A DNA stretch of 64,000 bases from a virus, in IMG/VR virus record IMGVR_UViG_3300044630_001234. One strand, 5' to 3'. Positions 18,999-60,900 of the stretch are shown in pieces. The translations under genes and the position numbers were made by a program. Every line of letters begins with the position of its first letter. Position 1 is the first letter of the stretch. The notes below the pieces were generated by a model. The model did no database searches. It saw nothing but the letters and a program-made list of their open reading frames with translations, and was not told the DNA's origin.

Positions 18999-19084
18999 AG
19001 AACCTCCTAATGTGTATGTCTATGTTATCAGTATATAACAAAACTGGTTTTATTGCAACCGATAATTTTACCAAAAGAAAACCC

Positions 19085-19445: not shown

Positions 19446-19455
19446 TAACTTATAT

Positions 19456-19782
19456 TTACACTCTAAAACTTTCTCCGCACCCGCATTTATCACGTTCATT
19501 AGGATTGCGAAATTCAAATCCTTCATTGAGTCCATTACGAGCCCAATCAACATTAAGTCCCTGTAAGTATGCAAGTGACTTTGCATCAACTAGTACTACA
19601 AAATCTGGTTGAGCAAAATTAGTAACTCCCTCTTCGGCAATGTAGCTGTCAACATATTCTAACGTATATGCAAGTCCGCTACATCCTGTAGTTTTTACAC
19701 CTAGCCGTATACCAATACCCTTGCCGCGTTTGGACAGGAGTTGTAGGATTTTCTTATTGGCTGTGTCGGTTACGGTAATCAT
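19456..19782 (-). CDS. iscA: Fe-S cluster insertion protein IscA/HesB family
   Basis: GIRLGVKTTGCSGLAYTLEY and the C-terminal NPNERDKCGCGESF give the three conserved Cys of A-type carriers. Confidence 0.8.
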   Translation of the reverse strand: MITVTDTANKKILQLLSKRGKGIGIRLGVKTTGCSGLAYTLEYVDSYIAEEGVTNFAQPDFVVLVDAKSLAYLQGLNVDWARNGLNEGFEFRNPNERDKCGCGESFRV

Positions 19783-36915: not shown

Positions 36916-39900
36916 TTAGCGTCGGACAAAGTGATAGTCTCCGTCGGGCCCGTTGTTGCTAAAAATACCCTGACAATCAAAACCTTGTTCATCCATATAG
37001 GCAATGACTTCGTCTTTTAACGGGGCGCCTTTATTATACTCTACTACCTGTAGTTCTAAGATAACGTGCTTTACGTCTTTAAGTGTTTCTACAGCACCTT
37101 TTAGTACATCAAGTTCTGCACCCTGTACATCCATTTTAACAAAGTCTGGTTTGGGGAATCTTTTAAGATTTGATACTGCATCAACTGTAACTGTTTTTAA
37201 CTTACGCTTATGCGTGTCGTTGAAATAATTTACAGTATCTGGATTAACTACTTCGTTTTCTTTGTAGTAGCTGTTACCACCCGGGTGAATATCGTTTTGA
37301 TAAAACTCAACTTCTTTGCCGGTTTCATTGCTCAGTACACCTATGTGGTATTTCATTCTGCGTTCTTGATACAAGAACTCTGTACTATCCATTGCTTCAA
37401 AAGCTACTATCTCTGCGTCAGGCCATATGCGAGCAGCTTCGTTAGTCCAATGTAGTACACAGGCTCCAATGTCGTAGATTACTTTAGGTTCAAGACCGGC
37501 TGTTTTTAATCCAGCAAGATAGTCTACATGACTTCTAGGTATCAATCGTTGGCTACCTAGTTCTCGCAGCCTTGTTTGAATGTTAGCTACCGGAGACGTA
37601 TCGATAGCAGGAATGTTATTATCAACATTAAAAGTAAAACTTCCTGTGTGCTGGCATTGTATAGTTGTATCGGCCCAAATCTTAAAACCTTTTTCTAAAG
37701 CCTTACGACAAAAGTCAACATCTTCCGAAACAGTGTCTTTGTGATTGATAGCACTATAATATTTAAACTGTGGATAACCTATGGCCTTGAATACTTCTGA
37801 TTTAACTAATACACAGCCAAACCCGCAGCCTGCAATTTCAACTAGTCCCCTGTCTTTAATTTTACCGTAGGGTATATTAGTAACTCCGCCGCGGTCATTT
37901 TTTTCATATAGTTCGAGTATATGCAGTCCTGGCTTGCGTTGAATATACAGTCCGCTGACAACATCCTTGTCATGTGCTAGAAGTTTTGATAGTGTGTCTT
38001 TAGGGAAAGCAATGTCGCTGTCTACGCTGAATAGATAATCAAATCCATTGACTACCCAATCTGCTATCAAGTTGCGAACTTGATCAATGTTGTAGCCATA
38101 GAAGAATTGAAACGTAGTTTCGTAGCCTTCTGGTACTTCTAAATCATATATGGCCTTGAATGTGTCAGGCTCTATGTTACGGGCTGTAGGGATTCCTATC
38201 AGTATCTTTTTTTTTGAAGCATTCATTTTCTTTACAATTATTTGTGCGTTTTGATTCTGCTCAACAGCGTTAACTTTATAGTCATTGAGCGGATTAATGT
38301 CATTATAGTTATACACGACATCTTGTAGGCATTTAACTTTGTTGGGATCTGCGGCTTCTATCAGAGCGTAGAATACCGATCCATCTCCACCAGCTTTAAA
38401 CCACTCACCTCGTTCATTTTGAAACAAACTGTCTGCAATATCATTGAGCAGATATTTTCTAAATGTACGTAAGTGTGTGTAAGGTAATATCCAATTGAAG
38501 TGATGATTCCTATAATCACGAGCTTGTTTAACATGCTCTGGATAAGGCTGGCTAATCAATGGAATGTTATCAACCATTGACCAGCATGATCCATAGGTAA
38601 ACTCTGTAGTACCGTCATATAAGGCATTATACTGACTGAAGATAGTGTTATCGTTGACAAGACTGTCATCACCATCTAACAGCATAATAATAGAGTTGTT
38701 ATTCATTAGGCTGCGTATGTGTTCAATCTGATTACGCACTGCGCCACGATTTTCTGTGTTAACAGCAATTTTAAATCTATCCTGCACTTCTTTAGGCAGT
38801 GCTGCCACTGTGGCCGTTAACACTTCTACAGTATTGTCAGTAGAACAATCGTCAATTAAAATATGCACATAGTTATCGTAGTCCTGTGCGGCTACACTCT
38901 GTATACACTTGGCAATGTAGTCAGCACAGTTATAGAACGGACTGATAACTACAATAGGTTGTTCGTTGCCTGTTTTATAATTTTCAAGTTCGATAGTGTT
39001 ATGAAACTTGCGATTCCAAATCTTGTGTACTCTACGATTGATCTTAGTCACTGCACGATATTCGCTACGAGACAAATATAAGCCTAACTTCTGAACCATC
39101 AACTGTTTCCACTGTAGGGCCACTGTGTCCCAACCTGCTAGGTCCTTGACAATGTTACAGTAGTATTGTTTTTGTTGATGTAGGTACTTGTTGTGATATG
39201 CTTGTACAGTCATAGCAACAAACTTCTCAACCTGCTCTGGCACATTGATATCAGGAAATAGACCGTTAGGTTCTATAGCATAGTCAATGTGATAGCAAGC
39301 ACCTTCTAATGCAATTTCTTCTAAGGCGCCAAATCTGCAGGTAATAGCAGGTGTGTTATACAGTAGACTCTCTAATGTACTGATACCAAACGTTTCAGGG
39401 AATGCTGCCGGATACAACATGAAGTTTGCTAGAGTAAGTATGTCGGCAATTTCACGTTGTGAAATAACTCCCGTAAACTCTATGCCTAGTTTAGCCAGTT
39501 CAGGATCTGCAGCCATGGCCCGCCAATCTTTTTCTTGTTGATCAGGTTCGCTGCCTGTGCTAAATCTATAATAGCCGCCTATGATCTTTAACTTAGCTGT
39601 AGGGATGTGTCTTTTAACGTGTGGCCAAATATACTTAACCAACGGAATCATGCCCTTGGTCACACTTGCATTGTAGACAAACAAGTTAGGGTCTTTAGCT
39701 TTAATGTCTACTTCTGTTTTAAAGTTTCGAGCACCATTACGTGTGATAAAAAACTTATTCTTTAACACTTCAAAGTTGCGTCTGCGTCCGTGGTGGCAAT
39801 TAGCCACATAGGTTAAGTGGAAGTCGCTGAGTGTAAAGATATCTGTAATGCGATTAGACGTTGCTAGTTCTTCAATTAGATTATCACCGAGACAAAATGT

Positions 39901-40284
39901 ATCGTGCATCCATAGCGCACGAACTCGAGCTTTTGCTATTACTCTATTATACAGATCCATGTTCTGGAAAGGAGTAGATCTTATGTCGTTTAATTTAGGG
40001 TAATCACTAGCGTCTGTAAATGGAATCACGGTACGTGAGCTTACAACAATGTCAAACTCATGATCCAGTGCAAGGTCGGTAAGTGGGCGATATGTGACCA
40101 TATCATAAACACCTGGACGAGCATGATCAATGCCGCAGTTGTTAAACACAGTCACGGTAAATCCAATTTGAGCAAGTTCTCTGCTCATCAGTGTAACAGC
40201 ACTTTCGCTGCCCCCTAAACCTTGTTTGTCTACAGTAGTACCATCATAGGGTATACCGATAATATCAATAATAGCGATCTTCAT
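36916..40284 (-). CDS. multidomain glycosyltransferase/methyltransferase (GT4 - GT2 - second GT-A - FkbM MTase), 1122 aa
   Basis: N-terminal GT4: GGSESAVTLMSREL ... ETFGISTLESLLYNTPAIT. Central GT2: ISPFYNCADYI...HILIDDCSTDNT. Third GT-A-like: ILIGIPTARNIEPD...FSVDSDIAF. C-terminal FkbM: VIYDIGACVLHW ... VKMDVQGAELDVLKGA. Confidence 0.75.
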   Translation of the reverse strand: MKIAIIDIIGIPYDGTTVDKQGLGGSESAVTLMSRELAQIGFTVTVFNNCGIDHARPGVYDMVTYRPLTDLALDHEFDIVVSSRTVIPFTDASDYPKLNDIRSTPFQNMDLYNRVIAKARVRALWMHDTFCLGDNLIEELATSNRITDIFTLSDFHLTYVANCHHGRRRNFEVLKNKFFITRNGARNFKTEVDIKAKDPNLFVYNASVTKGMIPLVKYIWPHVKRHIPTAKLKIIGGYYRFSTGSEPDQQEKDWRAMAADPELAKLGIEFTGVISQREIADILTLANFMLYPAAFPETFGISTLESLLYNTPAITCRFGALEEIALEGACYHIDYAIEPNGLFPDINVPEQVEKFVAMTVQAYHNKYLHQQKQYYCNIVKDLAGWDTVALQWKQLMVQKLGLYLSRSEYRAVTKINRRVHKIWNRKFHNTIELENYKTGNEQPIVVISPFYNCADYIAKCIQSVAAQDYDNYVHILIDDCSTDNTVEVLTATVAALPKEVQDRFKIAVNTENRGAVRNQIEHIRSLMNNNSIIMLLDGDDSLVNDNTIFSQYNALYDGTTEFTYGSCWSMVDNIPLISQPYPEHVKQARDYRNHHFNWILPYTHLRTFRKYLLNDIADSLFQNERGEWFKAGGDGSVFYALIEAADPNKVKCLQDVVYNYNDINPLNDYKVNAVEQNQNAQIIVKKMNASKKKILIGIPTARNIEPDTFKAIYDLEVPEGYETTFQFFYGYNIDQVRNLIADWVVNGFDYLFSVDSDIAFPKDTLSKLLAHDKDVVSGLYIQRKPGLHILELYEKNDRGGVTNIPYGKIKDRGLVEIAGCGFGCVLVKSEVFKAIGYPQFKYYSAINHKDTVSEDVDFCRKALEKGFKIWADTTIQCQHTGSFTFNVDNNIPAIDTSPVANIQTRLRELGSQRLIPRSHVDYLAGLKTAGLEPKVIYDIGACVLHWTNEAARIWPDAEIVAFEAMDSTEFLYQERRMKYHIGVLSNETGKEVEFYQNDIHPGGNSYYKENEVVNPDTVNYFNDTHKRKLKTVTVDAVSNLKRFPKPDFVKMDVQGAELDVLKGAVETLKDVKHVILELQVVEYNKGAPLKDEVIAYMDEQGFDCQGIFSNNGPDGDYHFVRR

Positions 40285-40329: not shown

Positions 40330-43300
40330 TTAGAACCAATATGCTGATAGTACAGTTGCACCGTCTGTACCGGTTCCTGCTACAAAAAAGTTTTCTGAAC
40401 CTATTAAACTATTGGTAATAGATCTAGAACCTGCTGTAGCAGCACTTAAATTCTGGAAAGCAAATATCTTTAATTGAACAGCATCATTGGTTATAGTATC
40501 AACTGTTACTATTTGATCGACTCTATCAATACCGATGCTTTCTGGATAAGGCATTCTATTAGTATATACGTGTGATCCTTCTCTATTGTATGAGGATCCA
40601 CCAATTGTTGAACTCTTAACAGTTGCAGTTGCTACTGCAATTACAGCAGTAACTGCACCGGCGTTTGTAGCTGGAAATGCTCGACCGCTGCCCCAGATAA
40701 TACGCACGGCACCGACACCGCCCCAACCACCACCGTAGCTGGTACCAGATCCGCCGCCACCGCCACCAAATGCACCACCGTTAATGATACGTAGACCGCT
40801 TTGTCCCGAACCTTCGCCACCACGGCCTTGTTCGCCACCTGAACCACCGCCGCCGCCGAAATAACTAGAACTTCCAACACCATCCGCGCCTTTTCCAAAT
40901 ATGCCAACACCGCCGCCTGCAGGTACACCATATGTACTTGAATAATAACCAGATGCTGCACCAGCGCCTGATCCTGCTGGTGGATTGTAGGCCGTAAAAT
41001 AACCTCCGGCATTATCAGCACCCTGGCCGGCATATCCGCCTGCGCCAGCGCCGCCCCTATTCCAAGATCCTTCAAATGCTCCATTACCGCCACGTCCACC
41101 GCCATCTCCTAAGAAGCCGCCGCCGTAGCCGCCACCGAATGAGGTAGCACCAGGGCCGCCGCGTCCACCACCATAACCTGCTACTGTAGCAGTTGAGATA
41201 AAGTAACTGGTACCGCCTAGGTTCGTTGATAGGTTACTTGCGTTGCTAGTTGATTCACCACCTTGACCAACTACAACAGTATATGATACTCCGGGAGTAA
41301 CTGGAATGTTATTCTTCCAACCTAGGCCACCACCACCACCGCCACCAGAACTCCAAACATGGCCACCACCGCCTCCGCCGCCTACGGCTACAACACTTAC
41401 TGATGTAACTCCGCTTGGTGCTGTCCACGAATATGTACCTGTAGTAACATAAGTCGCATCACCCGCTGTTGGATAGGATCCAGTGCCACCTGTTGGAACC
41501 ACTCCGCTGATTACACCTAACTTAGGAGTTGATGTTCCTGTAGAATAGCAGGTAATTTGATTAATGCTGCCAATAGCCGACACAACAACAGTATTTCCAT
41601 CGCCGCCATTACCGCCTGATACACTAGAGGTTGTGATAGTTACTATTGATCCGGCAGTATAGTTACTAGTACCTTTAAGGCCAATAACTGTAAATGACCA
41701 AGATGCAGTTGTTATAGTCGATATAGAACTAATTGTAGGATCTAACTCAAGTTCACCAGTTGAGTAAATTGAATTAATCGCTCCTGGAGTAGGAGCTACG
41801 CTACCATATGCTAAACAGCTAATACTATAACTGCTGGTATTAACCACAGTAATATATACAATATTTCCTTGCCCAAGATTACCAACTCTAGCCTGTGCAG
41901 AAAGAATATCTTTAGTAGCAAATCCAACTGTTGAACTCAGTCCTGTTATATCAAATATCCAAGGACCCGAACCTATTACAGTTCCAATGGTACCTACTGC
42001 GCCTGAATCTACACCTATCGAGATCGATGCGCTAAATGTTGCTCTAGTAGTGGTTGTAATAATCTTTGCATTATCAGCAGTTCTAACATAATTGCCAAGG
42101 TGTCCAGCAGCGTTGACTGATACAGTAGCCGCTTGCTGGCCGCCGTACAAGAATCCTTGATATTCAGGAATAACCCATCTAGACTTACCATAGGCTACTG
42201 TAGTATCTCTGGTATAACTACCTACAGGTTCTGTTGCCTGATTACCAATTAGATTTCCTTCGGCGTATGGACTATTAGCTGTAATAGTAACTATCATCGA
42301 GTCATTACCATTATCACTAGGCAGAGCACTAAATCTTTGTCTAATAACCGGAGTTTCAGATGCATTTGCACCTGCAATTAATACAGATGCTGCTGGTCCT
42401 GATCTAGCACCGAAGCCGGTATAGATTGTACTAGTTGATATTGGTGCGTAATTAATAATTGGTAATGCAACTCCGGTTGAATAATCTGTCCCTAGCCATT
42501 CAGATTTCTTAATTCTAATATTACTAAAGCCGCCAAAGGTACTGTTTACAGAATAAAAACTACTATCGAAGTAAACTGTCTGACCTGTTCCTTTAAACAC
42601 TGAATAGAGTAACTTGCTACCGTTATAATGTTTAATGTAACCATCGGTGGTATAAACAATGTAAAACTTATTAGCTGGATTCCAAGATCCACCTTGGTCA
42701 CCTAAATTTGAACCGTTATGATGAATATTGAAATTGTTAGACTGGTACGGATATGCAGCCCAGTCTATGGTATCATAACTTGCATTAGCAGTTGGGTCAG
42801 CGTTCCAACCTATCATGGCATAGCTAGCACCGTTATCTGTGGCTGCTGCTTGCTTATAGAATTCCATGGTAACAGGTGCTGTAAATCCCGTTGAAATATA
42901 TGCTTGATTATCCCAGTTAATTGATCCTGAAGTTTTAAAAACAGTTACGTCAGTGGTTCCGTTATTTGTTACTGTTAAGTTCCCGGACGCAACTAACGTT
43001 ATTGTTTCGTAGGGAACAGTTACAGTCGAGAAGGACATTACTGCACCAGTTGTAGATACAGTTCCTATTCTACCAGAAGTTGCAGTAGCAGTTGATAAAC
43101 AAGTGATCTGTTCGCTGTTAAGCACCGACGTTACATACACTGTAGCTGTGCCTAGACTACCTACCATGTTAGTAGCAGTGATAATTGACCCATATATAAA
43201 TGCATTAGTGGATGTTAGGCCGGATATAGTAAATGTATATGGTGCTATTGTAGTTATAGGTGTAAATGGATTTATCACTGATACTACAGCAGAGGTCTGT

Positions 43301-46300
43301 GTTATCGTATTATTGTAAGACGAATTATCAATAAACGATGTACTTTGGCAAGTTAATAAAACTGTGTATGTACCTGTTGAAATAGGTGCAATATTTGTAC
43401 CACTGATTTGTGTTGTAGCCAAAGTAGATGTGGTAGGTGTAAAATTACCGGTGTAAACTGCCAGGCCTTTTACCAGTCTAAAATTAGATAGGTAGCCGTT
43501 AAAATATTCTGAATATCCTCTGGCGTTACCAATTAAAAATGGCTCTGTATTATCTGCACCCATTGAAATAGCCACTGAATACACCAATGAACCGTTTACA
43601 TATATGTTTAATGTAGAACCAGTGTAGACCCATGCACAGTGACTCCATACTCCTGCAGTTAATGTATAGCTTGAATTGTATTCAGTTCCATTATAAAAAC
43701 TGATAACACCTGTGCTGATTCTTAAAAAACCCTCATACGATGTAGTGCCAGAACTAGTAACACGTTTACAAAAGATAGCACGATATGCAGAGTAATCACC
43801 GTCTGGTCTAATCCAGCACTCTGCTGTCCATGCTAGGTTGTTTAAATTAAAATTAGTAGAGTGAGCAATCTGTAGGAAACTAGTTGATCCATTAAAACTG
43901 ACACTGTAGGAACTAGTATTAGTTAGAGTCGATACGCCAGTTACTGGTCCGATATAATTTCCGATGTCTGGACCGGCGGAATAAATTCCAACAATAGTAC
44001 CAGTGGTCGGTGCTAAGGTTCCATTTTGAGCTATACAGGTTATGGACGTACTACTATTAACCTCAGTTACTATTACAGTGTTACCACCGAAACTTCCACC
44101 TAATGGTGTTGATCGTACAATAGTACCTGTGGTAAATTGTGCAGTTGACCTTAGTTGTTGAATGGTCAGTGTCCAAGGATTTGTTCCGGATACTGAAGTA
44201 ATTAATCCTGGGGTGGTATCTGATGTTACTGATAAGATGTTGGTCAACGTGCCAACATTATAATCTCTAATAGTAGCACTAGATACTGAAACTACACTTA
44301 CAAACGCTGATTGCACTCCGAAGTATTTGTTTTCTAATGGAGTTGGTATTGTTACACCAGAAGATGACCCACTTGCAATTCCAGCTGTGTATATTTCTAA
44401 GATTTGAGCGGCTGTTAATTCACCGCTTATAACTTGTATTGCATCTAAGGCAGTCGGAGCTTCAGTACCTGCATACGGGTAACCGTTGCCTATGTAACTT
44501 GTTCCAGGATAACTTGAGTTAACAGCTATGTTAGTTAGTTCCTTAACTCCGTTAACGTATGCATCCACCTGATAATTTGATTTAACTACCCAAGCTAGGC
44601 AGAACCAATTATTTGTGTTTACTAAAGTTGTTCCAACGTTTTGTGTTGCATTGGCTACACAAATTTTTCCTGAGCTAATTCCCAGACCCCAGTATATGCT
44701 GTTTGCAGGATCACTGAAAATAGGCACACTAGGAGAATATGATCCGCCGCTGGCAGTTTGAGTTCCTTTGTACCATGCTACATAAGTCTTACTCCAATTA
44801 CTGGCCACTGTGGTTAATTCGTTGATTCTTAGATAATTACTGGCCATGTTCCAACCAGTAGCGTGTCCGGTATTTTGAACACCGCCTGTAGTAGGGAATG
44901 TTAAACTACCGGTTGTAGTCAATGAATAGGAGCCTGATATAGTAATTGCACCACCGTTGAATTGAATACCTAATAATTTCGTAGCACCAGGCGGAGTTAA
45001 AAGTTCATTTCCGAGTGAAACACCACTGTAACTAGAACCGGTATACGCCTGTACTGTACCGGCCCATACTAGACGTACAAATCCGTTACCACCGGAGCTG
45101 GCTAGGCCAGTTCCACCATCCCAAGAACCACCACCACCACCGCCAGGAAATCCACCTTCTCCACCCCGCGATCCTGCTGAAGATAATCCGTTGCCTGCAC
45201 CGCCGTTAGTGCTAGAAACTATAGGAGTATAGGTAGCAGATCCACCACCACCGCCACCTGTTACGTTATTTTGTCCAGCACCGCCAGCACCACCACTATA
45301 TCCACTATTAGAACCTCCTGTGCCTGCTGAGAAACTTGCGGCACCGCCACCACCAGCGCCAGCGCCCCCATTAAACCCAGATTGATATAAAGTACCGCTA
45401 GGACTGTATGAAGTACTACCGTTTCCGCCCGCACCTCCCAAACCACCTGCGCCGCCACCACCACCACCTCCGTCCCAACCAGCGCCGCCTGGGCCACCGG
45501 CGTAACCCCCAGTGGTTACCCCGCCTGGAGTATTAGCAAAACTAGGAGCAGCAGGTGCCGGAGCACCTGGATTAGTGCTGTAAGGCGTACCACCGATACC
45601 ACCGGGGACAGTCATAGTGAATGAGCCAAACGCAACTGAGCTCAATCCACCATCTGGTGCTTTTGTATTTTTTGTCGCAGTGGCTATTCCGCCTAATCCA
45701 ACAACTATGGTAAGAGTTTGACCCGGAGTCACTGATAGGTTATTGAAGAATCCAGCCGATCCACCAGAGCCACCACCGCCACCACCGTCACCGCTGTTTC
45801 CGTCATCACCTGCGCCACCTGCGCCAACTGCCATTACTGATAATGTAGTTGCATTTGAAGGAACAATGAATGTATATGTTCCAGGCGCAGTATAATTTTG
45901 ATCAGTTTCTACTGGCACTGGTGGCGTATATGTTCCGCCGGGGACACTGATAGAGTCGATCAATCCCGCAGTTGGAGCAAGGCTGCCGATTCCACCATAG
46001 GCTACAGCAATAATGCTAGTAGGGCTAGTAACTGTAGATACAGTTACCGTACTTCCTACGCCAAAACTTCCAAGTTTACCCGAACTGGTTGTTGCTGTTA
46101 TTATCGAAGTAGCTGTTAACGAAGATACAGTACTAGATGAAATATTGTAAATTCTAAAGATCCAAGAAGAACTTGTAATTGGAGTAACTCTGTAAACAAA
46201 GGTTCCTGTTGTGCTAGGATTAATTTCGGAATTGACTTGAGTTGATATACTAGTGCTAGTTGATGAAGTTGTATAAAATTTAGTAAATGCTAGAGTACCA

Positions 46301-49300
46301 GTGTTGAATAATCTAGCAGGCGAGTATCCGTAGGTTTCTGATGGTACATTGACTCTGAGAAAATACCCAGTTTGTAGTATACTCTTTCTTTCTAAGGTTA
46401 ATCTTCTGGTGTCATAGACCACGCTACCCGTAATGTTAGGAACGTGATTTTGCTGGAATAATTTTGGAGAATTTTTAATACTCGGAGATCTAAGATCATA
46501 AGACGGGCCGCCAACTGTTGAACTCTTAGTAAATGGAGTTACAACGGCTGCAACAGCACCAGTTATTTCAGTAACATTACTAGTTGGGAATGCTCTACCT
46601 GTACCCCAAATAATACGTACAGCTCCTTGGCCGCCCCACCCACCACCATAGCTGGTACCAGAGCCACCGCCACCGCCACCGTATTTTCCGCCATTGATTG
46701 TCTTAAAACCGCTTTGTCCCGAACCTTCGCCACCACGGCCTTGTTCGCCACCCGAACCACCAAATCCACCATAGAATTGTCCGCTAGCGCCACCACTCGA
46801 TCCTTGACCATATATACCTACACCGCCGCCTGCTGGTACGCCATATGTACTTGAATACCAGCCACCTGTACCGCCGCCGCCGCCTGCAGGAGCGGCATTA
46901 CCACTGCTACTACCACCATATGAGTCTGCGCCACGGCCTGTATATCCTCCAGCACCAGCTCCACCGTAATTCCATGATCCGTCAAAGGCACCATTACCAC
47001 CTCGTCCACCACCATCACCTTGATAGCCACCACCATAGCCACCACCAAACGAAGTAGCATTGGGGCCACCGCGCCCTCCGCCGTATCCTGCTACTGTAGC
47101 AGTTGAGATAAAGTAACTGGTACCACCTAGGTTTGTGCTATTGTTATTTGCATTAGCAGTCGATTCGCCACCTGATCCTACTACAACGGTATAGGTCTGA
47201 CCAGGTGTAACTGAGATGTTGTTTTTCCATCCCAAACCACCGCCACCACCGCCACCTGAACTCCAAGTGCTGCCGCCACCACCACCGCCACCTACTGCTA
47301 CAACACTCACTGATGTAACTCCTGCTGGAGCGACCCATGAATATGTACCTGTGGTAATATAAGTTGCATCGCCAGGCTGTGCCGGTAATGAACCTGTAAG
47401 CCCTGTTAGATACGGTCCAACTATTGTTCCTGCAATTGGAGTAGTTGTTCCCGTAACATAACAGATAATTTGTGTATTGTTAAGAATAGATTTAACTAGT
47501 ACTGTATTTCCTAGACCAAAACTACCTGTTACTGATGTAGCGGTAACTACAGCAGCCACAGATAGATAGCCAGTGCCCTTAATACCTATTACATTAAATT
47601 CCCACGATGTTGTTGATGTAGCTGTAACTGAAGTAATTGTAGTGTCAGGTATAATTTCGCCAGTGGCGTATATCGCATTAAGTATTCCAGTAGTAGGAGC
47701 TACAGATCCGCCAAATGCAGAAACTGTAATCGATGAAGTTCCAGTATTGGTAACATATACAACATTTCCTGTACCTAGTGTAGCAGATCTCTCAACTACA
47801 GAAATTACAGATTTAGAAGGTAATTCAAGACTTGACGACATTCCAGTAATTGTAAATGTCCAGGGTCCGACTAATGGTGTTCTAAACGTTGGTAATGATG
47901 TACCGGCTGACGCAGAAAATGTAAATGTTACTCCTGTAGCAGTGAAAGTGTGTATAGTATAAGTACCGGCTGTGGTTACAGTTCCGCCCTGACATCTCTG
48001 TGAGCCAGGATATCTAACAATAACAATACCACTGCCGCCAGAGCCTGATCCACTAGACCAACCACCGTTCGCAGCCCAGTAACTTCCACCACCACCGCCG
48101 CCCCCTGTGCCTGCAATAGCGTTAGGTGTTCCGCTACCTGTAGTAGTAGCATTAACTTCGTTGGTATATACGTTATAATTGTAGTAGGTTGTAGTACCAG
48201 CACCGCGTCCGCCGCCTGCAAATCCATCACCTGCTCGTTCACTACTGTTACCACCGCCACCGCCCCCGCCTGCATACCATCGCCATGTGCCAGAGATATC
48301 AAATGCTTTACCAGCGCCACCATTACCGCCTGGTGCTGAACCTGATCCATTTACACCTGCACCACCAGCTCCACCACCACCAGCTCCTGTCCATGTATAG
48401 CCAGTTGTACCACCAGCATTACCATAGGCGGCCGCGCCATTTACACTAGTTTGAGTAGCTGAACCACCACCGTTTTGATAAGCGGAACCTCCGCCTGAAC
48501 CACCGTTCATTTTGCCGCCGTCAAACCCCTGTCCAGTACTTCCGCCGCCACCGCCACCTTGTGCAATATAAGTTCCAAAAGAAGAGTTTCCGCCCTTGTT
48601 GCCGTTGGCGTTTGTTGAGTTAGCAATAGCAACACCACCTGCGCCTACTATAACATCATATGCACTAGATAATGTTACACCAGTAGCATAAAGAACTCCG
48701 CCGCCGCCACCGCCACCGTTACCGTTTGTGGTATTATTGTTACCACCCGATCCGCCACCCGCAACAACTAAAATATCGGCAACAATAGACTGTACAGGGG
48801 GAGGAGTATAAGTGCCACCTGTAGGTGTAATACCGAGAATTGATCCATTGGTGGGAGCAACAGTGGCTGTATTAGCCACTGCAATAATACTGGTACTATT
48901 AGTCACAGTATAAACATAGACTGTGCCGTCACCAAAACTTCCAAAACTGCTTGAATTTGTATTGGCAGAGATTATTGTGCCAAACGTTAGGCCAGATGTC
49001 TGTGTTGAGGATAGTTGCTCAATGGCAAATGCATAAGTTGCTGTGGTTATCAGTTCCACTCCGTAGATATTGGCATTAAGATATACTGGATTAGTAACAG
49101 TATTAATAATTCCAACTCCTGCACCATCACGATTAACAGGAATACTGATTGAATTAGTGCCTGTTGTGAATAACTTTGTCGAAGTTGAATATCCGTAGAC
49201 CGTCGACGGAGTTTGGATACGTTGATAATTAAACGAATTGTTTAATGTAATTATCGTAGCTGAAGTTAATAGGCGTGTAGTTGGATATGCAATGACCAGT

Positions 49301-49485
49301 GGAGTAATAAAACTATTATAGTTTACGCCATCCACTGGTCTATTGCCAAACTCGTAGGCACGCCCATTGGGATAGTATTGTCTGGCATACTCCCCTCTTA
49401 CATTGTACTGAGCAATTACAGTAACCGAAGCTCCAACAACTGTGGTGTTGAAGTTCTTTTTAGATCCGTCAATTACTTGCGGCAT
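40330..49485 (-). CDS. giant glycine-rich structural (fibre/fibril) protein, 3051 aa, with a LamG/ConA-like lectin domain and an internal tandem duplication
   Basis: Single uninterrupted ORF. Poly-Gly tracts (GGGGGGGS...). LamG-like segment (ECWIRPDG...VWSHCAWVYTGSTLNIYVNGSLV...GNARGYSEYFNGYLSNFRLV). Two ~560-aa near-identical blocks (...TGTYSWVAPAGVTSVSVVAVGGGGGGG... / ...TGTYSWTAPSGVTSVSVVAVGGGGGGG...). Confidence 0.7.
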   Translation of the reverse strand: MPQVIDGSKKNFNTTVVGASVTVIAQYNVRGEYARQYYPNGRAYEFGNRPVDGVNYNSFITPLVIAYPTTRLLTSATIITLNNSFNYQRIQTPSTVYGYSTSTKLFTTGTNSISIPVNRDGAGVGIINTVTNPVYLNANIYGVELITTATYAFAIEQLSSTQTSGLTFGTIISANTNSSSFGSFGDGTVYVYTVTNSTSIIAVANTATVAPTNGSILGITPTGGTYTPPPVQSIVADILVVAGGGSGGNNNTTNGNGGGGGGGVLYATGVTLSSAYDVIVGAGGVAIANSTNANGNKGGNSSFGTYIAQGGGGGGSTGQGFDGGKMNGGSGGGSAYQNGGGSATQTSVNGAAAYGNAGGTTGYTWTGAGGGGAGGAGVNGSGSAPGGNGGAGKAFDISGTWRWYAGGGGGGGNSSERAGDGFAGGGRGAGTTTYYNYNVYTNEVNATTTGSGTPNAIAGTGGGGGGGSYWAANGGWSSGSGSGGSGIVIVRYPGSQRCQGGTVTTAGTYTIHTFTATGVTFTFSASAGTSLPTFRTPLVGPWTFTITGMSSSLELPSKSVISVVERSATLGTGNVVYVTNTGTSSITVSAFGGSVAPTTGILNAIYATGEIIPDTTITSVTATSTTSWEFNVIGIKGTGYLSVAAVVTATSVTGSFGLGNTVLVKSILNNTQIICYVTGTTTPIAGTIVGPYLTGLTGSLPAQPGDATYITTGTYSWVAPAGVTSVSVVAVGGGGGGGSTWSSGGGGGGGLGWKNNISVTPGQTYTVVVGSGGESTANANNNSTNLGGTSYFISTATVAGYGGGRGGPNATSFGGGYGGGYQGDGGGRGGNGAFDGSWNYGGAGAGGYTGRGADSYGGSSSGNAAPAGGGGGTGGWYSSTYGVPAGGGVGIYGQGSSGGASGQFYGGFGGSGGEQGRGGEGSGQSGFKTINGGKYGGGGGGSGTSYGGGWGGQGAVRIIWGTGRAFPTSNVTEITGAVAAVVTPFTKSSTVGGPSYDLRSPSIKNSPKLFQQNHVPNITGSVVYDTRRLTLERKSILQTGYFLRVNVPSETYGYSPARLFNTGTLAFTKFYTTSSTSTSISTQVNSEINPSTTGTFVYRVTPITSSSWIFRIYNISSSTVSSLTATSIITATTSSGKLGSFGVGSTVTVSTVTSPTSIIAVAYGGIGSLAPTAGLIDSISVPGGTYTPPVPVETDQNYTAPGTYTFIVPSNATTLSVMAVGAGGAGDDGNSGDGGGGGGSGGSAGFFNNLSVTPGQTLTIVVGLGGIATATKNTKAPDGGLSSVAFGSFTMTVPGGIGGTPYSTNPGAPAPAAPSFANTPGGVTTGGYAGGPGGAGWDGGGGGGGAGGLGGAGGNGSTSYSPSGTLYQSGFNGGAGAGGGGAASFSAGTGGSNSGYSGGAGGAGQNNVTGGGGGGSATYTPIVSSTNGGAGNGLSSAGSRGGEGGFPGGGGGGSWDGGTGLASSGGNGFVRLVWAGTVQAYTGSSYSGVSLGNELLTPPGATKLLGIQFNGGAITISGSYSLTTTGSLTFPTTGGVQNTGHATGWNMASNYLRINELTTVASNWSKTYVAWYKGTQTASGGSYSPSVPIFSDPANSIYWGLGISSGKICVANATQNVGTTLVNTNNWFCLAWVVKSNYQVDAYVNGVKELTNIAVNSSYPGTSYIGNGYPYAGTEAPTALDAIQVISGELTAAQILEIYTAGIASGSSSGVTIPTPLENKYFGVQSAFVSVVSVSSATIRDYNVGTLTNILSVTSDTTPGLITSVSGTNPWTLTIQQLRSTAQFTTGTIVRSTPLGGSFGGNTVIVTEVNSSTSITCIAQNGTLAPTTGTIVGIYSAGPDIGNYIGPVTGVSTLTNTSSYSVSFNGSTSFLQIAHSTNFNLNNLAWTAECWIRPDGDYSAYRAIFCKRVTSSGTTSYEGFLRISTGVISFYNGTEYNSSYTLTAGVWSHCAWVYTGSTLNIYVNGSLVYSVAISMGADNTEPFLIGNARGYSEYFNGYLSNFRLVKGLAVYTGNFTPTTSTLATTQISGTNIAPISTGTYTVLLTCQSTSFIDNSSYNNTITQTSAVVSVINPFTPITTIAPYTFTISGLTSTNAFIYGSIITATNMVGSLGTATVYVTSVLNSEQITCLSTATATSGRIGTVSTTGAVMSFSTVTVPYETITLVASGNLTVTNNGTTDVTVFKTSGSINWDNQAYISTGFTAPVTMEFYKQAAATDNGASYAMIGWNADPTANASYDTIDWAAYPYQSNNFNIHHNGSNLGDQGGSWNPANKFYIVYTTDGYIKHYNGSKLLYSVFKGTGQTVYFDSSFYSVNSTFGGFSNIRIKKSEWLGTDYSTGVALPIINYAPISTSTIYTGFGARSGPAASVLIAGANASETPVIRQRFSALPSDNGNDSMIVTITANSPYAEGNLIGNQATEPVGSYTRDTTVAYGKSRWVIPEYQGFLYGGQQAATVSVNAAGHLGNYVRTADNAKIITTTTRATFSASISIGVDSGAVGTIGTVIGSGPWIFDITGLSSTVGFATKDILSAQARVGNLGQGNIVYITVVNTSSYSISCLAYGSVAPTPGAINSIYSTGELELDPTISSISTITTASWSFTVIGLKGTSNYTAGSIVTITTSSVSGGNGGDGNTVVVSAIGSINQITCYSTGTSTPKLGVISGVVPTGGTGSYPTAGDATYVTTGTYSWTAPSGVTSVSVVAVGGGGGGGHVWSSGGGGGGGLGWKNNIPVTPGVSYTVVVGQGGESTSNASNLSTNLGGTSYFISTATVAGYGGGRGGPGATSFGGGYGGGFLGDGGGRGGNGAFEGSWNRGGAGAGGYAGQGADNAGGYFTAYNPPAGSGAGAASGYYSSTYGVPAGGGVGIFGKGADGVGSSSYFGGGGGSGGEQGRGGEGSGQSGLRIINGGAFGGGGGGSGTSYGGGWGGVGAVRIIWGSGRAFPATNAGAVTAVIAVATATVKSSTIGGSSYNREGSHVYTNRMPYPESIGIDRVDQIVTVDTITNDAVQLKIFAFQNLSAATAGSRSITNSLIGSENFFVAGTGTDGATVLSAYWF
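40605..42285. repeat. intragenic tandem-duplication copy 2 (approx.)
   Basis: Protein-level and shadow-ORF similarity to 46530-48210 (offset ~5.93 kb). Confidence 0.5.
46530..48210. repeat. intragenic tandem-duplication copy 1 (approx.)
   Basis: See copy 2. Minus-strand shadow ORFs 46563..47069 and 40641..41105 share ...VVQVANKAVVAKVRDKAV.... Confidence 0.5.
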
Positions 49486-54786: not shown

Positions 54787-57700
54787 TTATGATCCTATTG
54801 CTAATATATACGGTGTCAGAACTGCGAACAAACTCTTAGTGAACGTTCTTCCGGAGATCGTTCCTAAATTTCTATTTATGGTTAAATCATTACCAATTCG
54901 GAAATCTCCGCGTTGGTCAGTGCCTGTGAAATAAACTTTACCACCGTTAATTTCTACTGCTTGATTAGCACTAATGGGTTCGCCACCAAGACTAGGCAAT
55001 GACGCATTAATATTAACCCCTGCGCCAATCCATTCAAATGAATGTCCTGATGATGTAATCAAACTGTATTGATGGAAGGTTACCACAGTATTGTCATTGA
55101 TTATGCTCGGTACAAATTCTTCTACTGTAACAGTACTAGAATATCCATTTTCAACAATGCTGGCAACGATGTCTACAAGAGCCTGTGCTATAGCAGATTG
55201 TGTAGATGTAGCAGCAGTAGAGGTGGTACTTTGCGGTACCACAAGTTGTTGCGTTGGGCTTATGACATTATTAACAAGGCAGTCATCTATGATTGTTTTA
55301 ATAAAATAGTAGGCTGCCACTGTTGCAGGTTTTGTATTTGCAGGAATTGTAAGCACCGCACCATTATAGTAGGCATCGGCAGCGTTGGCAGTTTGGCTGT
55401 TACCCCCATATAATACATCGTAGGTCACAGCATCTATAATATATCCTACATCTCGTTTGCAAGTAGAGGTACTGTATACCAGTCCCACAAAACTAGTATT
55501 AACGTATGCTATTGTTTCAGCTTGAATAAAACTTCTATTTGCTAATAATAGATTAAACGCATTGTTAACTGTAGTGCTAGTATTAGCAGTAAGATTAATA
55601 GGAGTCCGAGTAGGTGCTACACTAGGTCCAGTATTAATTATATCAGTGATCGTAGTTATCAAACTATTAACTAATCCAATCTCTGTTGATCCTGCCGTTC
55701 CTGTAGTTATTGCCTGAGCAACTGATGTTTGATATCGATTTGTAACAGTGGTACCTGTAATAATCTTAGCCGAAATATCTTTGATAAAATTATATGCCGC
55801 AGTAGTTTGCGGTATCTCATTTCTTATTTCAGAACTACTTGCATTATATCCATAGTAATATACACCACTCATAATGCTTTGCCTATTGCCGCCATGTAAT
55901 AGGTCAAATGCCACTGAGTCAATAATATATCCTAGATCTCGATAGCAGGTTGCAGTGTTATAACTAAATCCAGGATTATTAGCGTTGATCCAATCTATTG
56001 TATCAGTTTGTATACTTGCTTTATTAGCCAGTATCGCATTATATGCCAATACAATACCGGCATCGGTGCTAACAAAACCGTTAGGCTCTACACGATTACT
56101 AACATCACCGGCACCATTGTTAATAATATCTAGTATTATATCAAAGTGATTAGTCACCGTAGTTGATGCTGTTAAGCCGCCTGCTGTAAATGATATAGTG
56201 CCCGCTAATCCCCTTGCATGAATTATTGCGTTAGTAGTTGTTGTTAATTGTTCAAAAATATTTCCAGTATAATTGCCCTGGCTCCAGTATTGTAATCCTG
56301 CAAACGTGCTCTGACTAGTGCCTCCGTACAAAATATCAAATGCTAGAGAATCAACAATAAATCCAGTATCTCTGTAACACGATGTTGTATTATAAGTAAA
56401 ATTACTGATATATGCCACTGTTTCTTCAGCAATAAAATTTTTATTATTTTGAAGAATAAGGCTGGCATTTACTGTAGCTGTAGTCGCACCAGTTGGAGGA
56501 GTAAACAATAACGCAGGTACTACACTTAACCCTGTTTGTAAGATGTTTAAAAATACGGTAAACAATCCGACAACTCTAGAATACGGATCAGATGGACCAT
56601 TAATCAATAATGCAAGTACCTTAGTTCTTAAGAAATTTACAGCACTTATTGTTTGAGTTTTCTGAGCTGTAAATATTGTTAAAGTTTCTCTGTAGTAACT
56701 AGCAGCTTCATCAATGGTTCTATAATTAGTGTTTAGTACCATGTCGTAGGCTATTGAATCTAAAATATCTCCAACGTTTCTACTAAAATTAAATTGATTA
56801 TAATCAAATCCCGGAAATTCTTCTAATACGTGTTTAATTGTTTCAATCTGTAATTTAGTTTTTTCATCAAGGATAGTCTGTCTTGCATTTCTGTATGTTG
56901 CAGATTCGGCAGTTAGACTAGGATATGTTATGTCAGTATTACCAGTCTTAAATGCTGTACTTGCACTAATAGTATAGTAATCACCATCACCAAAACTTAC
57001 TGCATCACCAATTCCAGGTTTTTGAGTTAAATTGTCAATTACAAATTCGAGACCGTTTGTTGCTCCGTTGACTTTACCTGAATAATTTGCAGAACTTACT
57101 CCGTCTGCATAAAGAGCATAATTACCAAAGCTACTATTGCTGTTAGTAATAGAACAATTACCACCAGACTCACATAAGAAACCTTTGTCACAACAGATAG
57201 TAAACACAGAAACTAGCTGTGTATATCCACCATTGAGCATGTGTACACCGATACCACCTTGATTGTACTGTGTATACGCATCAACCACCATAGATTTTGT
57301 ACCCAGTGCGTGACTTCCATCTACACGCATACCAGTTCCGTTGCTGGTCATTGATGTACAGTTTTGTACGTAAGGGCTGGTTGAAATAACACCAGCACTA
57401 CCATCTGGATTAAACGCTACAGCAGCAGCTGGACTCACATGGTCCTTGAATGTCATATGTGCTAGATAACATCCGTTATTAACGTAGAATAAATCTTGAG
57501 TAACATTCTGAGGTCTAACTATTACAGATCTTAGATTATCTCCTACAACAGATACAAAATCTGGAACAGTCATAGGATTATTTTCTATATAATCTCCGCT
57601 CTTAACAAAAATAGTAGTGCCACGTGTAGCTATTGCTAACGCAGCCCGAATAGTAAGTTTACTTAAATTTAAACTAGTACCCGAGTTACTGTCGTTACCA

Positions 57701-57939
57701 CTTTCACTGACATATAAAACATTGCTAACAGCCATGTTACCGATACTACCAGCATATCCAGTACTACCCGCAAAGCCTCTTAGGCCGCCATAATCTAATT
57801 CGGTCCAGGTGTCAACACCGTTGCCAATTTTAAAAAGATCGGTATCTGTTTCGATACCCATTTCCGCGACAGCTAAAACGGGGTCAACAGTTGCCCATTC
57901 GTTTGCAGTACCACGTCTAAATTGAATTTGAACAGCCAT
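54787..57939 (-). CDS. large tail-fibre-like protein (1050 aa) with the N-terminal 'QxRRG' module
   Basis: N-terminus MAVQIQFRRGTANEWATVDPVLAVAEMGIETDTDLFKIGNG matches the start of the 588-aa protein. Followed by a beta-helix-like region and repeated ~90-aa C-terminal units (CYRDxGxIxDSxAxDxLxGG repeated four times). Confidence 0.65.
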   Translation of the reverse strand: MAVQIQFRRGTANEWATVDPVLAVAEMGIETDTDLFKIGNGVDTWTELDYGGLRGFAGSTGYAGSIGNMAVSNVLYVSESGNDSNSGTSLNLSKLTIRAALAIATRGTTIFVKSGDYIENNPMTVPDFVSVVGDNLRSVIVRPQNVTQDLFYVNNGCYLAHMTFKDHVSPAAAVAFNPDGSAGVISTSPYVQNCTSMTSNGTGMRVDGSHALGTKSMVVDAYTQYNQGGIGVHMLNGGYTQLVSVFTICCDKGFLCESGGNCSITNSNSSFGNYALYADGVSSANYSGKVNGATNGLEFVIDNLTQKPGIGDAVSFGDGDYYTISASTAFKTGNTDITYPSLTAESATYRNARQTILDEKTKLQIETIKHVLEEFPGFDYNQFNFSRNVGDILDSIAYDMVLNTNYRTIDEAASYYRETLTIFTAQKTQTISAVNFLRTKVLALLINGPSDPYSRVVGLFTVFLNILQTGLSVVPALLFTPPTGATTATVNASLILQNNKNFIAEETVAYISNFTYNTTSCYRDTGFIVDSLAFDILYGGTSQSTFAGLQYWSQGNYTGNIFEQLTTTTNAIIHARGLAGTISFTAGGLTASTTVTNHFDIILDIINNGAGDVSNRVEPNGFVSTDAGIVLAYNAILANKASIQTDTIDWINANNPGFSYNTATCYRDLGYIIDSVAFDLLHGGNRQSIMSGVYYYGYNASSSEIRNEIPQTTAAYNFIKDISAKIITGTTVTNRYQTSVAQAITTGTAGSTEIGLVNSLITTITDIINTGPSVAPTRTPINLTANTSTTVNNAFNLLLANRSFIQAETIAYVNTSFVGLVYSTSTCKRDVGYIIDAVTYDVLYGGNSQTANAADAYYNGAVLTIPANTKPATVAAYYFIKTIIDDCLVNNVISPTQQLVVPQSTTSTAATSTQSAIAQALVDIVASIVENGYSSTVTVEEFVPSIINDNTVVTFHQYSLITSSGHSFEWIGAGVNINASLPSLGGEPISANQAVEINGGKVYFTGTDQRGDFRIGNDLTINRNLGTISGRTFTKSLFAVLTPYILAIGS

Positions 57940-57965: not shown

Positions 57966-60900
57966 TTATATGACTACGCCGCCACCGTCTATTGGCTCAA
58001 TTCCACCGTAAATAGTGTTGGGAATTCCGCCATCTAAATTAGGACTGCCTCCCGAGCCACCGCTACCTCCCCCACTTCCGGAAAAGCCTGCGCCCGCACT
58101 ACCTGTATAACCACGAATTTGACCCACATCTAACCAAGTAGGATTTATCCAAACGTGTAAGTGGCCGTCATTTGATGTTAGATATCCGTCTCCTGTTGTT
58201 CCATTATATGGATTTGGAAGTCCTGCGGCCGACCCTACAAACCCAACAATATTTAATCCGTTACCAGGAGCACCTTGACTACCTGTAAATCCCGAACCTG
58301 CCGAGCCTGTATAACCCTGCGGAATACTGAAATTTAATACCGCATCGTATTCAGTGCCTGTGTTAGTTACTGTAGGGATTGAACCAGCGGTTCCAGTTGT
58401 TACAACACCAATTGTAATTGTAGAAGTACTACCACGACTACCTGCATAGCCTAATGCGGCTGCTTCACCTGGAATACCTTGACTACCTGTAAAACCTGTA
58501 GCACCTAGAGGTCCTACACTACCCGAATATCCTAAACTTCCTGAATATCCTAAACTACCACTAAAACCTATAGGTCCTCTAGACCCTGTGTATCCTATAA
58601 TACCCTGGAAGCCTTGTTGTCCTGCTGAACCTGTAAAACCTATAAAACCTTGTTCGCCTACAAAGCCAGTATCACCTTTACTACCTGTAAATCCAGTACT
58701 GCCGTCATATCCCTGGCTACCAGTAAAACCTATACTACCTGCAAATCCTCGACTTCCAGTGTAACCTTCACTACCTGCAAATCCAGAAAACCCTCGACTA
58801 CCAGTAAAGCCCGTAATACCAAAGCTACCCGTATAACCCGTTGATCCAAAGCTACCAGTAAAGCCTGTAACACCCTGAGATCCAACGTAGCCAGTATCCC
58901 CCTGACTACCAGTATAACCAATGACTCCCTGTGATCCAGTAAAGCCAATAACACCCTGACTGCCAGTAAATCCAACAGCACCTCTGCTACCTGCATAGCC
59001 TCTATCACCCTGGTCACCTGTTCTAGCAAAGGTAACAACAACAGTCATTCCATCTGTGAATGTACCCGATCCTGACAGATATGAAACAGGTACATGGAAA
59101 TGATTAGCTGATGGTATGCCTTCTTCAGTGTGAGATCCTGTTATAGCAAATAGGGCAAAATTACTAGGATCTGCTTTTTCTGCTATTGAGAAGTGACCTT
59201 TGATCTGCGAAGTAGAATCATCTATGGTCTGCAGATATGTATAAATTGATTCGCCTAGCTTATCATTAAAATTAATGTAGGCTACTGTAGTGCTTCCAGA
59301 AAAAGTTAACGTATCAAATTCAATCTCACCACCTAGTGGATCTGTGCCTATTACATCGGTGCTATACAGGAACTCAAAGGCTGCTCCACCGAATCCACCT
59401 TGTTCGCCCTTGCTACCAGTATATCCTAATACGCCTTGGCTACCTGTGTAACCTATGTCACCTTGTGATCCGGTATAACCTATTTCACCTTGACTGCCTG
59501 TGAAACCTATATCGCCTTTGCTACCTGTATATCCTAAACTACCAGTAAATCCAATATTACCCTGTGATCCAGTATAACCTATATCACCTTTACTACCAGT
59601 GTATCCAGCAAAACCTTCCGAACCAGCATCACCTTTCTCACCTTGACTACCAGTGTAACCCTGACTACCTGAGTAACCTTGGCTACCAGAATAGCCTTGG
59701 CTACCAGAATAGCCTTGACTTCCTGTCCATCCTTGAATACCCTGAATGCCTTGATCACCTTTGTCGCCTTTACTGCCAGTGTATCCTATATCACCTCGAC
59801 TACCAGCATACCCTTTTTTGTCTTGTATATTAATATAGCCGATCATTCCGCTATGGAATACACATTGATATACTATTTGATCCGGAGCATCATATGGTAC
59901 CCTATATGAAACAAGTATGTTTGTTGCATAATTTCCCGTGGACGGATTATTATTTTCCATTCCGGGCAAGTTATTAGTGTTTCCACTAGCGTATCTAAAT
60001 GCCAACGGATGTGAGCTAGTTATATTTTGTAAATCAAAGTATACTAAGTCACCTCTTACTATTGTAAGTGTAGGGTAATTACTAGAAAATCCGTCTACAG
60101 TGTAATTAAATGCTCCTGCAGGATTATTCATTATGAATAATTGACCGCCTTGGCTACCAACATAACCAACACTGCCTGTATATCCTTGACTACCTGAGTA
60201 ACCTATACTACCTGTGAATCCTAATCCGCCACGACTACCTGTAAATCCAAAACTTCCTATGAATCCGGTGTCACCTCGAGATCCTGTAAATCCTCGTGAA
60301 CCAGTAAAACCTAATGCTCCAGCTGCACCAGCAGTTCCTTGACTACCAGTGTAACCACGGCTACCACTAAAACCTGTAGCACCTTGGTCGCCTGTGTTAC
60401 CTGCACTACCTTGACTGCCCGCATAACCAGAACTACCTACAAATCCTGTTTCGCCCCGACTACCACTGTATCCAATTTCACCTTGACTACCTGTATAGCC
60501 GCCTGGATCACCTTGTGGACCTATACTACCTGTATAACCAACGCTACCAGTATAACCCAAGGCAGCGAATGCACCTGGAATACCTGCACTTCCAACAAAG
60601 CCTGTAAGACCTCGACTACCATTATAGCCCGCACTACCTGTAAAACCTGTAATACCTGCACTGCCAAGAAAACCTCTACTACCTGTAAAGCCTGGTGGAA
60701 CATCGGCGGAGATTGTTAGTTGTTTAGGAGCGGTGCCTGTATTGGTTGCTAATATAATATTGTTACCAGCAACTAATTTAATTGTATCTAGGCCTTGCGC
60801 TACTAATGTTTCTTGTCCATCTACTTCCCAATACTTGAAAGTAGAATTCATTCCGATCTTAACTGCACCTGCGCCTAGATCGGTGACATCAAATCCTGCA

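Follow-up and report, generated by a model that had tools for sequence, protein, structure and literature searches.

The recognition that polyglycine brush domains serve phages as receptor-binding modules is recent and comes from a few structures (S16 gp38, Pam3 gp24, and Bxb1 gp33 and gp29), and these glycine-rich domains are now treated as receptor-binding (PMC9608196, PMC13243192, PMC13243795, PMC13252515). In Pam3 gp24 an alpha-helical shaft is followed by a TNF-like sandwich and then by the glycine-rich domain, whose conserved GGGGxGG motifs make a lattice and whose less-conserved distal loop tips are the proposed receptor contacts; the domain is related to S16 gp38 and to ALK (PMC9608196). 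How broadly brush domains are distributed has been posed as a question (PMC13243795). Marine T4-like pelagimyophages and cyanomyophages, for their part, carry a host recognition cluster of fibres, ConA domains, collagen repeats, Mtd domains and glycosyltransferases (PMC7029224). Here we analyse a 64,000-nt stretch of viral DNA (IMG/VR record IMGVR_UViG_3300044630_001234; hereafter the window), in which one 9-kb gene on the minus strand (40330-49485; the giant gene) encodes a protein with four glycine-rich domains that are predicted to have the brush fold. The product of the giant gene is probably a very large, modular adhesin on the virion of an uncultivated tailed phage (genome of ~170 kb), and probably a side fibre of the tail or baseplate.

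A sequence-only reading of the window had described a single glycine-rich open reading frame (ORF) of 3051 aa, and this stands: the frame runs uninterrupted through 3051 codons to one terminal stop, and the protein is 19.3% glycine, 12.9% threonine and 11.5% serine. Its start codon lies 15 nt past the stop of an upstream 575-aa gene, and orthologs share the identical N-terminal start (MPQVIDGSKKNFN). The ratio of nonsynonymous to synonymous substitution rates (dN/dS), measured against ortholog P0006, stays at 0.04-0.31 in every domain, and the gene is therefore functional and under purifying selection. A database search with the giant protein retrieved 230 metagenomic homologs at E <= 1e-10. 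Intact relatives of the gene occur in more than 10 independent metagenome assemblies, and the close relatives are 2868-3289 aa long with ~80% identity to the giant protein. In searches of 50,697 phage records, megablast with the gene and tblastn with aa 528-1011 (block A below) gave no match, and tblastn with the first 3000 aa gave LamG matches only; the glycine domains are probably hidden from such searches by the low-complexity filter. Three shadow ORFs (124-154 aa) lie inside the glycine-rich domains, at 40641-41105 (-), 47976-48350 (-) and 47573-47962 (+). They have no independent sign of coding, and the best explanation is that they arise incidentally from long stretches of GGN codons, which contain no stops in alternative frames.

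Hidden Markov models (HMMs) built from the giant protein's own repeats resolve ~19 modules, listed here from the N-terminus with glycine-rich (GR) brush domains, spacers (S), LamG-like domains (LG) and others. Structure models are from AlphaFold2 (AF2), with confidence given as the predicted local distance difference test (pLDDT).

aa 1-130; 49096..49485, minus strand; Nt, presumed virion anchor, conserved in 20 relatives, no family match
aa 137-233; 48787..49077, minus strand; S1, spacer beta-barrel (own HMM), all-beta in the AF2 model at pLDDT 80-87
aa 234-530; 47896..48786, minus strand; GR1, brush domain of the 'IVIVRY' subtype, 10 Gly-rich motifs, Pfam PF21722 (best stretch 223-492)
aa 528-619 and aa 614-709; 47359..47904, minus strand; S2 and S3, spacer beta-barrels, first part of block A
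aa 708-1007; 46465..47364, minus strand; GR2, brush domain of the 'AVRIIWG' subtype, 11 Gly-rich motifs, second part of block A
aa 1000-1092; 46210..46488, minus strand; L1, linker domain, no family match
aa 1094-1194; 45904..46206, minus strand; S4, spacer beta-barrel (own HMM)
aa 1197-1540; 44866..45897, minus strand; GR3, brush domain of a divergent subtype, with other cassettes in its place in some orthologs
aa 1545-1745; 44251..44853, minus strand; LG1, divergent LamG-like domain (hhalign against LG2: 86.8% probability, E 4e-6)
aa 1756-1850; 43936..44220, minus strand; S5, spacer beta-barrel (own HMM)
aa 1855-2044; 43354..43923, minus strand; LG2, canonical LamG/ConA-like domain (Pfam PF13385, 75 bits, best stretch 1866-2005)
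aa 2068-2159; 43009..43284, minus strand; S6, spacer beta-barrel (own HMM)
aa 2155-2300 and aa 2300-2495; 42001..43023, minus strand; X and Y, no family match
aa 2494-2587 and aa 2582-2680; 41446..42006, minus strand; S7 and S8, spacer beta-barrels, first part of block B
aa 2678-2983; 40537..41454, minus strand; GR4, brush domain of the 'AVRIIWG' subtype, 10 Gly-rich motifs, second part of block B
aa 2975-3051; 40333..40563, minus strand; Ct, C-terminal domain, conserved in relatives, no family match

Pfam recognises the glycine-rich domains as Gly_rich_2 (PF21722; 105.4 bits against a gathering cut-off of 24.3, in 4 stretches) and the lectin-like region as Laminin_G_3 (PF13385; 75 bits against a cut-off of 27.6, in 2 stretches), and NCBIfam adds one weak LamG-region match only. 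At E <= 1, Pfam has no match for Nt, L1, X, Y, Ct or the S domain, nor for LG1 searched alone. By hhalign, X and Y show no relationship to LamG, nor do the S domains to the terminal domains. The LamG/ConA-like domain that the sequence-only reading placed between two repeated blocks is indeed there, as one of two LamG-like domains; LG2 finds cyanophage 'virion structural protein' genes by tblastn, and the two would probably add glycan binding. A match to phrog_416 ('minor tail protein') covers aa 1120-1357, the S4/GR3 region. Together the four GR domains account for 41% of the chain and are 32% glycine, as against 10% outside them.

Each of two blocks had also been read as an Ig-like region followed by poly-glycine tracts. 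The glycine-rich parts are present, in four domains and not two, and the regions ahead of them match no Ig-type family or Ig beta-sandwich fold; they model as small beta-barrels. We aligned 41 GR domains, taken both from the window and from homologs in metagenomes. Modelled with AF2, aa 528-1011 have a mean pLDDT of 72, rising to 80-95 in the beta core of the GR domain. The structural matches of this model (with score, aligned length and identity) are the cyanophage Pam3 tail fibre 7ypx_A (16.5, 186, 26%), the Bxb1 "tail wing brush" gp33 (12.5, 164, 35%), the Bxb1 tail spike gp29 (9.6, 201, 16%) and the invertebrate ALK glycine-rich domain 7lir_B (8.3, 128, 20%). Foldseek places the same proteins at its top ranks, and a BFVD structure search matches 154 viral proteins at E <= 1e-3, including mycobacteriophage minor tail proteins, megavirus "collagen-like" proteins and a 485-aa P-SSM2 protein. 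The models thus assign to the GR domains the fold of phage receptor-binding brush domains, a TNF-like beta-sandwich with glycine-rich loops. The 9-11 Gly-rich motifs per domain agree with the ~10-14 GGGGxGG-type motifs that mark the brush class, and the whole protein has 16 runs of at least five glycines.

DSSP assigns neither helix nor strand to residues 300-430 of the modelled segment, where pLDDT is mostly 66-92 with one ten-residue block at 54, a pattern consistent with the polyglycine-II geometry that we infer for the GR domains. Across 10-11 orthologs, glycine columns of the GR domains are 0.92-0.96 conserved as compared to 0.70-0.75 for non-glycine columns, and several patches between glycine motifs are nearly unconserved (0.1-0.3; aa 778-786, 810-817, 2751-2757 and 2825-2835). 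This pattern of conserved glycines and variable segments is the same as in gp38-type adhesins. Two other structural descriptions were rejected: a collagen-like structure, as the protein has no run of four or more G-X-Y triplets and no Pfam Collagen match, and a disordered low-complexity protein, given the confident fold in the AF2 model.

The spacer occurs in eight copies of ~90 aa, 29-48% mutually identical, ahead of the GR domains and elsewhere in the chain. From its models, S appears to be a rare beta-barrel domain that has no Pfam family: a profile of the eight copies finds 83 matches at E <= 1e-3 among 1.84 billion cluster representatives. Seven of the ten best new matches (those beyond the relatives already found with the giant protein) also carry Gly_rich_2 and/or Laminin_G_3, as S-S-GR or S-S-GR-LamG proteins of 414-1146 aa. 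Cassettes that are joined in the giant protein are thus also found on their own, in small proteins.

The giant gene stands among other large genes, all on its own (minus) strand; the main ones are as follows, with L001, L002 and L003 denoting related loci.

36916-40284, minus strand; 1122-aa fusion of GT1 and GT2 glycosyltransferases with an FkbM methyltransferase, directly downstream, adjacency conserved in L001 and L003
49501-51228, minus strand; 575-aa protein with no Pfam family, directly upstream in the window and in L001, L002 and L003
51405-54449, minus strand; 1014-aa collagen-like fibre
54787-57939, minus strand; 1050-aa tail fibre with an Mtd_N domain
57966-63893, minus strand; 1975-aa collagen-like protein

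The sequence-only reading had a collagen-like protein downstream and more than 17 kb of fibre genes; the collagen-like genes are in fact upstream of the giant gene, and the fibre-type genes span ~23.5 kb, from 40330 to 63893. The 575-aa neighbour may be a partner, adaptor or chaperone. The glycosyltransferase-methyltransferase fusion might act by glycosylating the Ser/Thr-rich fibre or by altering the host surface, its functional tie to the giant gene being unproven. The order 575 aa, giant gene, glycosyltransferase-methyltransferase and 134 aa is kept on a 168.8-kb ENA contig and a 48-kb JGI contig, and the order 1051 aa, 1014 aa, 575 aa and giant gene recurs in an IMG/VR viral contig. Scanning IMG/VR with a single N-terminal sequence gave no match, and scanning it with an N-terminal alignment gave one locus. 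Further upstream, the window and L002 have collagen-like genes and the Mtd_N fibre, and L001 and L003 have LamG-rich genes of 863-1699 aa; these differences between relatives fit a hypervariable host-recognition island. By BLASTP, no domain is common to the giant protein and its neighbours.

The neighbouring tail-fibre and collagen-like genes, the brush-domain fold and the LamG domains together support a surface fibre or adhesin as the most likely product, which was also the earlier suggestion; virion location, receptor binding and oligomeric state of the giant protein are inferred. Several observations weigh against this assignment. The 64-kb window has no hallmark gene of a capsid, sheath or baseplate. 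A phmmer search of PDB sequences with the whole protein found no match, and the profile of the 41 brush domains reached Pam3 gp24 at a marginal E of 0.06 (in an alignment that does line up the hallmark motifs), so the link to solved proteins rests on predicted structure. Nt has no match to any known attachment domain (Pfam, E <= 1), and its AF2 model from 12 sequences has no confident fold (pLDDT ~25). Characterised fibres carry the brush domain at their distal end; in the giant protein GR1-GR3 are internal, and only GR4 lies near the C-terminus, where it is followed by a 77-aa domain. In no domain does dN/dS exceed 1 against P0006, which rejects domain-wide positive selection. Lastly, some distant homologs come from bacterial metagenome-assembled genomes (MAGs; Planctomycetota and Elusimicrobia), and the domain is thus not restricted to phages.

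Some of these points would suit a virion protein that is not the primary receptor-binding one. It could be a fibre of the capsid or neck, a whisker, or a long decoration fibril for environment sensing or for weak non-specific adherence to particles, mucus or cells. The many spacers, the internal brush domains and the want of a recognisable baseplate-attachment domain all fit such an accessory fibril, and the Mtd_N fibre at 54787-57939 could then be the primary receptor-binding protein. We consider this rather unlikely, as all the solved brush-fold proteins are tail-tip or tail-fibre components, the PHROG matches fall in tail categories, and the variability between glycine motifs is that of the specific adhesins gp38 and Pam3 gp24.

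A role outside the virion is more improbable still, whether as a bacterial-type surface adhesin carried as cargo or as a protein of the infected-cell surface (e.g. in superinfection exclusion with the adjacent glycosyltransferase). It would account for the Gly_rich_2 homologs in MAG proteins annotated as surface proteins, for the large glycosyltransferase-methyltransferase gene that is always adjacent, and for a moderately hydrophobic stretch at aa 15-25; moreover, glycosyltransferases of the host recognition cluster have been suggested to alter the host surface (PMC7029224). Yet the giant gene is packed with fibre genes in one strand-oriented block, its close relatives are on phage-like contigs only (including the IMG/VR viral contig), and its structural matches are phage tail proteins. 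A structural role also suits a gene of 9 kb that is under purifying selection within a hypervariable cluster of fibre genes.

In its account of the repeats, the sequence-only reading proposed a recent tandem duplication that left two near-identical 1.7-kb modules, which would recombine often and keep the fibre length varying, much like a contingency locus. Comparing the giant protein with itself by BLASTP in 200-aa chunks, we found one long internal repeat (aa ~540-997 against ~2507-2967, E down to 4e-47), and two similar blocks do lie near the positions proposed, each glycine-rich after a non-glycine part. These are the two S-S-GR units: block A is aa 528-1011 (46453-47904) and block B is aa 2494-2981 (40543-42006), each of ~485 aa (1.45 kb) and not the ~560 aa proposed. 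They are far from near-identical. Protein identity is 65% overall, with 48% over the first ~160 residues and 66-80% in the glycine-rich remainder, as compared to 63-94% between orthologous blocks of different phages. DNA identity is 66% when codon-aligned (by blastn, 70.6% over 1212 nt, E 2e-153, with the best ungapped stretches at 75-78%), and third codon positions within identical residues are 54% identical. Nor is the arrangement tandem: the block starts are 5910-5913 nt apart, and Tandem Repeats Finder reports just two trivial 12-21-nt arrays in the gene.

All eight full-length close relatives that we compared carry the two blocks in matching positions. Block A is 67-92% identical to block A of other proteins and block B is 63-94% identical to block B of others; blocks A and B average 61.8% within one protein and 60.8% between proteins. 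Orthologous blocks thus resemble one another far more than block A resembles block B in a single protein. The duplication is therefore ancient, older than the divergence of the compared phages, and its copies evolve independently. The near-equality of the last two values also led us to reject concerted evolution of the blocks. The longest exact run shared by the blocks is 45 nt, at 46708-46752 in block A (gene nt 2734-2778) and at 40798-40842 in block B (gene nt 8644-8688). Both copies encode GGEQGRGGEGSGQSG, at a place where block B varies in other phages; the run may, with low confidence, be a short gene-conversion patch, the sole hint of exchange between blocks. To the credit of a recent duplication, the blocks are clearly homologous, share that run, have a spacing that is a multiple of three (so that a crossover would stay in frame), and belong to a gene whose length does vary among relatives. 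Even so, a crossover between them should yield a product of ~1080 aa, which is seen in none of the compared relatives, and the length differences map to the middle cassettes; together with the divergence and conserved placement of the blocks, this makes a recent, actively recombining duplication very improbable.

Related phages do differ in the length of this gene, as had been suggested, and the variation has another source. All retain Nt-S-GR-S-S-GR-L1-S as the front part and Y-S-S-GR-Ct as the back part, and in the middle the GR, LamG, S and X cassettes vary in number and order (X, for example, is found in some relatives only). Length differences (2868-3289 aa) stem from gain, loss and exchange of these middle cassettes and from mosaic recombination between phages, and not from recombination of block A with block B. 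The giant gene of the window is itself mosaic: over aa 1101-2100 it is 83-97% identical to ortholog P0001, with P0002 absent or at 62-86%, and over aa 2401-3000 it is 67-76% identical to P0001 and 89-98% to P0002. Relative to P0006, synonymous divergence is as low as 0.28 in S7 and as high as 1.28 in GR2, a spread across domains that also points to recombination. Ortholog P0007 has, at aa ~1188-1740, an LVVGGGG GR start, then a complete LamG domain, then the GR remainder ending in GSGIVVIRY; here LamG appears to be inserted inside a brush domain as a nested binding head. That the repeats reflect a chimeric join or a collapsed repeat is scarcely credible, for although repeats in metagenome-assembled genes are open to misassembly, the eight relatives (from JGI, ENA and Logan assemblies) hold both blocks in the same order, a fragment from another contig (P0005) matches the giant protein at 100% identity along all of its 1877 aa, the divergence of the blocks is too great for collapse, and the frame is intact with purifying selection throughout.

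Taking the giant protein as a virion adhesin, we propose that the chain would be a bead-on-a-string of ~19 independently folding modules: the N-terminal anchor, eight spacers, four brush domains, two LamG domains and four others (L1, X, Y and Ct). Each brush domain would be a TNF-like beta-sandwich carrying a polyglycine bundle, in which the conserved glycine motifs would build a rigid scaffold, with variable loops of non-glycine residues between them that would contact receptors on the host surface, by analogy with Pam3 gp24, Bxb1 gp33 and gp29, and S16 gp38. Several binding heads per chain would allow multivalent adsorption, possibly to more than one receptor. Specificity would evolve through recombination between related phages that exchange whole mid-gene cassettes. 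The two S-S-GR blocks are the product of the ancient internal duplication.

A bolder form of this proposal is tentative, and we rate it as doubtful: a single-chain adhesin with four brush and two lectin heads, each with a different ligand, that gives multi-receptor or multi-host adsorption, with specificity reprogrammed as co-occurring phages swap whole head cassettes, LamG nested in a brush domain (as in P0007), an undescribed spacer family, and a fibre perhaps glycosylated by the GT1-GT2-methyltransferase. If true, the multi-headed cassette system would be a host-range system distinct from single-tip fibres and from diversification of the diversity-generating retroelement type. The giant gene and its 230 relatives show brush domains chained four to five per protein with lectins and spacers, and shuffled by aquatic phages. 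They offer a concrete family in which to study how host range is set and changed in large uncultivated phages, and a cleaner account of the giant "glycine-rich low-complexity" ORFs that annotation pipelines leave as hypothetical. The parts, the likely role and the type of genomic island are already known, Pfam models the glycine-rich domain, and no concept is overturned. In the literature that we searched, the chaining of brush domains in one polypeptide, a dedicated spacer fold and shuffling at the cassette level are not described, and neither PF21722 nor Gly_rich_2 is mentioned.

The rest of the window includes nrdA, nrdB, an exonuclease gene and a PstS-like gene. No cultured phage is close, since the window NrdA is at best 55-60% identical to cultured phage proteins, and its best matches are not cyanophages. 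The PstS-like phosphate-binding protein gene (7281-8327, minus strand; phrog_5385, E 1.5e-62) belongs to the auxiliary metabolic genes that phages of phosphate-poor aquatic environments typically carry. The window also has a permuted, two-piece transfer-messenger RNA (tmRNA) gene at 19140-19444 on the minus strand, which matches the full Rfam model RF04321 with 111 bits against a gathering cut-off of 47 (E 7e-21); the ARAGORN call spans 19049-19475, with the tag peptide ANDSHFALAA. Permuted tmRNAs are typical of Alphaproteobacteria, some cyanobacteria and Betaproteobacteria, and the tmRNA may therefore hint at the host. The search for tRNA genes across the 64 kb gave none.

Compared to known systems, the gene neighbourhood matches the host recognition cluster described above: 36.9-63.9 kb of the window holds all its gene types, and the best cultured-phage matches of the LamG domain are cyanomyophage 'virion structural protein' genes. 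The flanking markers of the cluster, VrlC and gp14, were not seen in the window in PHROG scans of selected ORFs, no search having been aimed at them, and the paper that describes the cluster makes no mention of glycine (PMC7029224). Pam3 gp24 (PDB 7YPX/7YFW) is a trimeric fibre of fewer than 300 residues (PDB chains of 280 and 289 aa) with one distal brush domain, an alpha-helical N-terminal shaft and a dedicated chaperone, gp25 (PMC9608196). The giant protein is more than 10 times longer, with four brush domains, three of them internal, and with neither a predicted helical shaft nor a recognisable chaperone gene found. Bxb1 gp33 and gp29 (PDB 9D93) are small single-brush accessory proteins of a siphophage on a mycolic-acid-walled host, where the brush fingers are proposed to bind lipid; their phage lineage and domain context are unlike those of the giant protein. 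With the ALK/LTK glycine-rich domain (PDB 7LIR, 7LRZ, 7N00), part of a eukaryotic cytokine-receptor ectodomain, the likeness is one of fold only. In gp38 of the S16/T2 type (PDB 6F45), a polyglycine-II lattice is built from conserved glycine-rich motifs, and the hypervariable segments between the motifs set receptor specificity. The giant protein shares this conserved-glycine/variable-loop pattern and gives no match, in sequence or in structure, to gp38 with its gp37-docking N-domain. Q58MM8 of Prochlorococcus phage P-SSM2 (485 aa), a stand-alone S-S-GR protein, aligns with the modelled S-S-GR block over 461 columns at 33% identity (Foldseek E 8e-19). The stand-alone S-S-GR proteins have one cassette each, whereas the giant gene joins four brush and two LamG cassettes in one chain.

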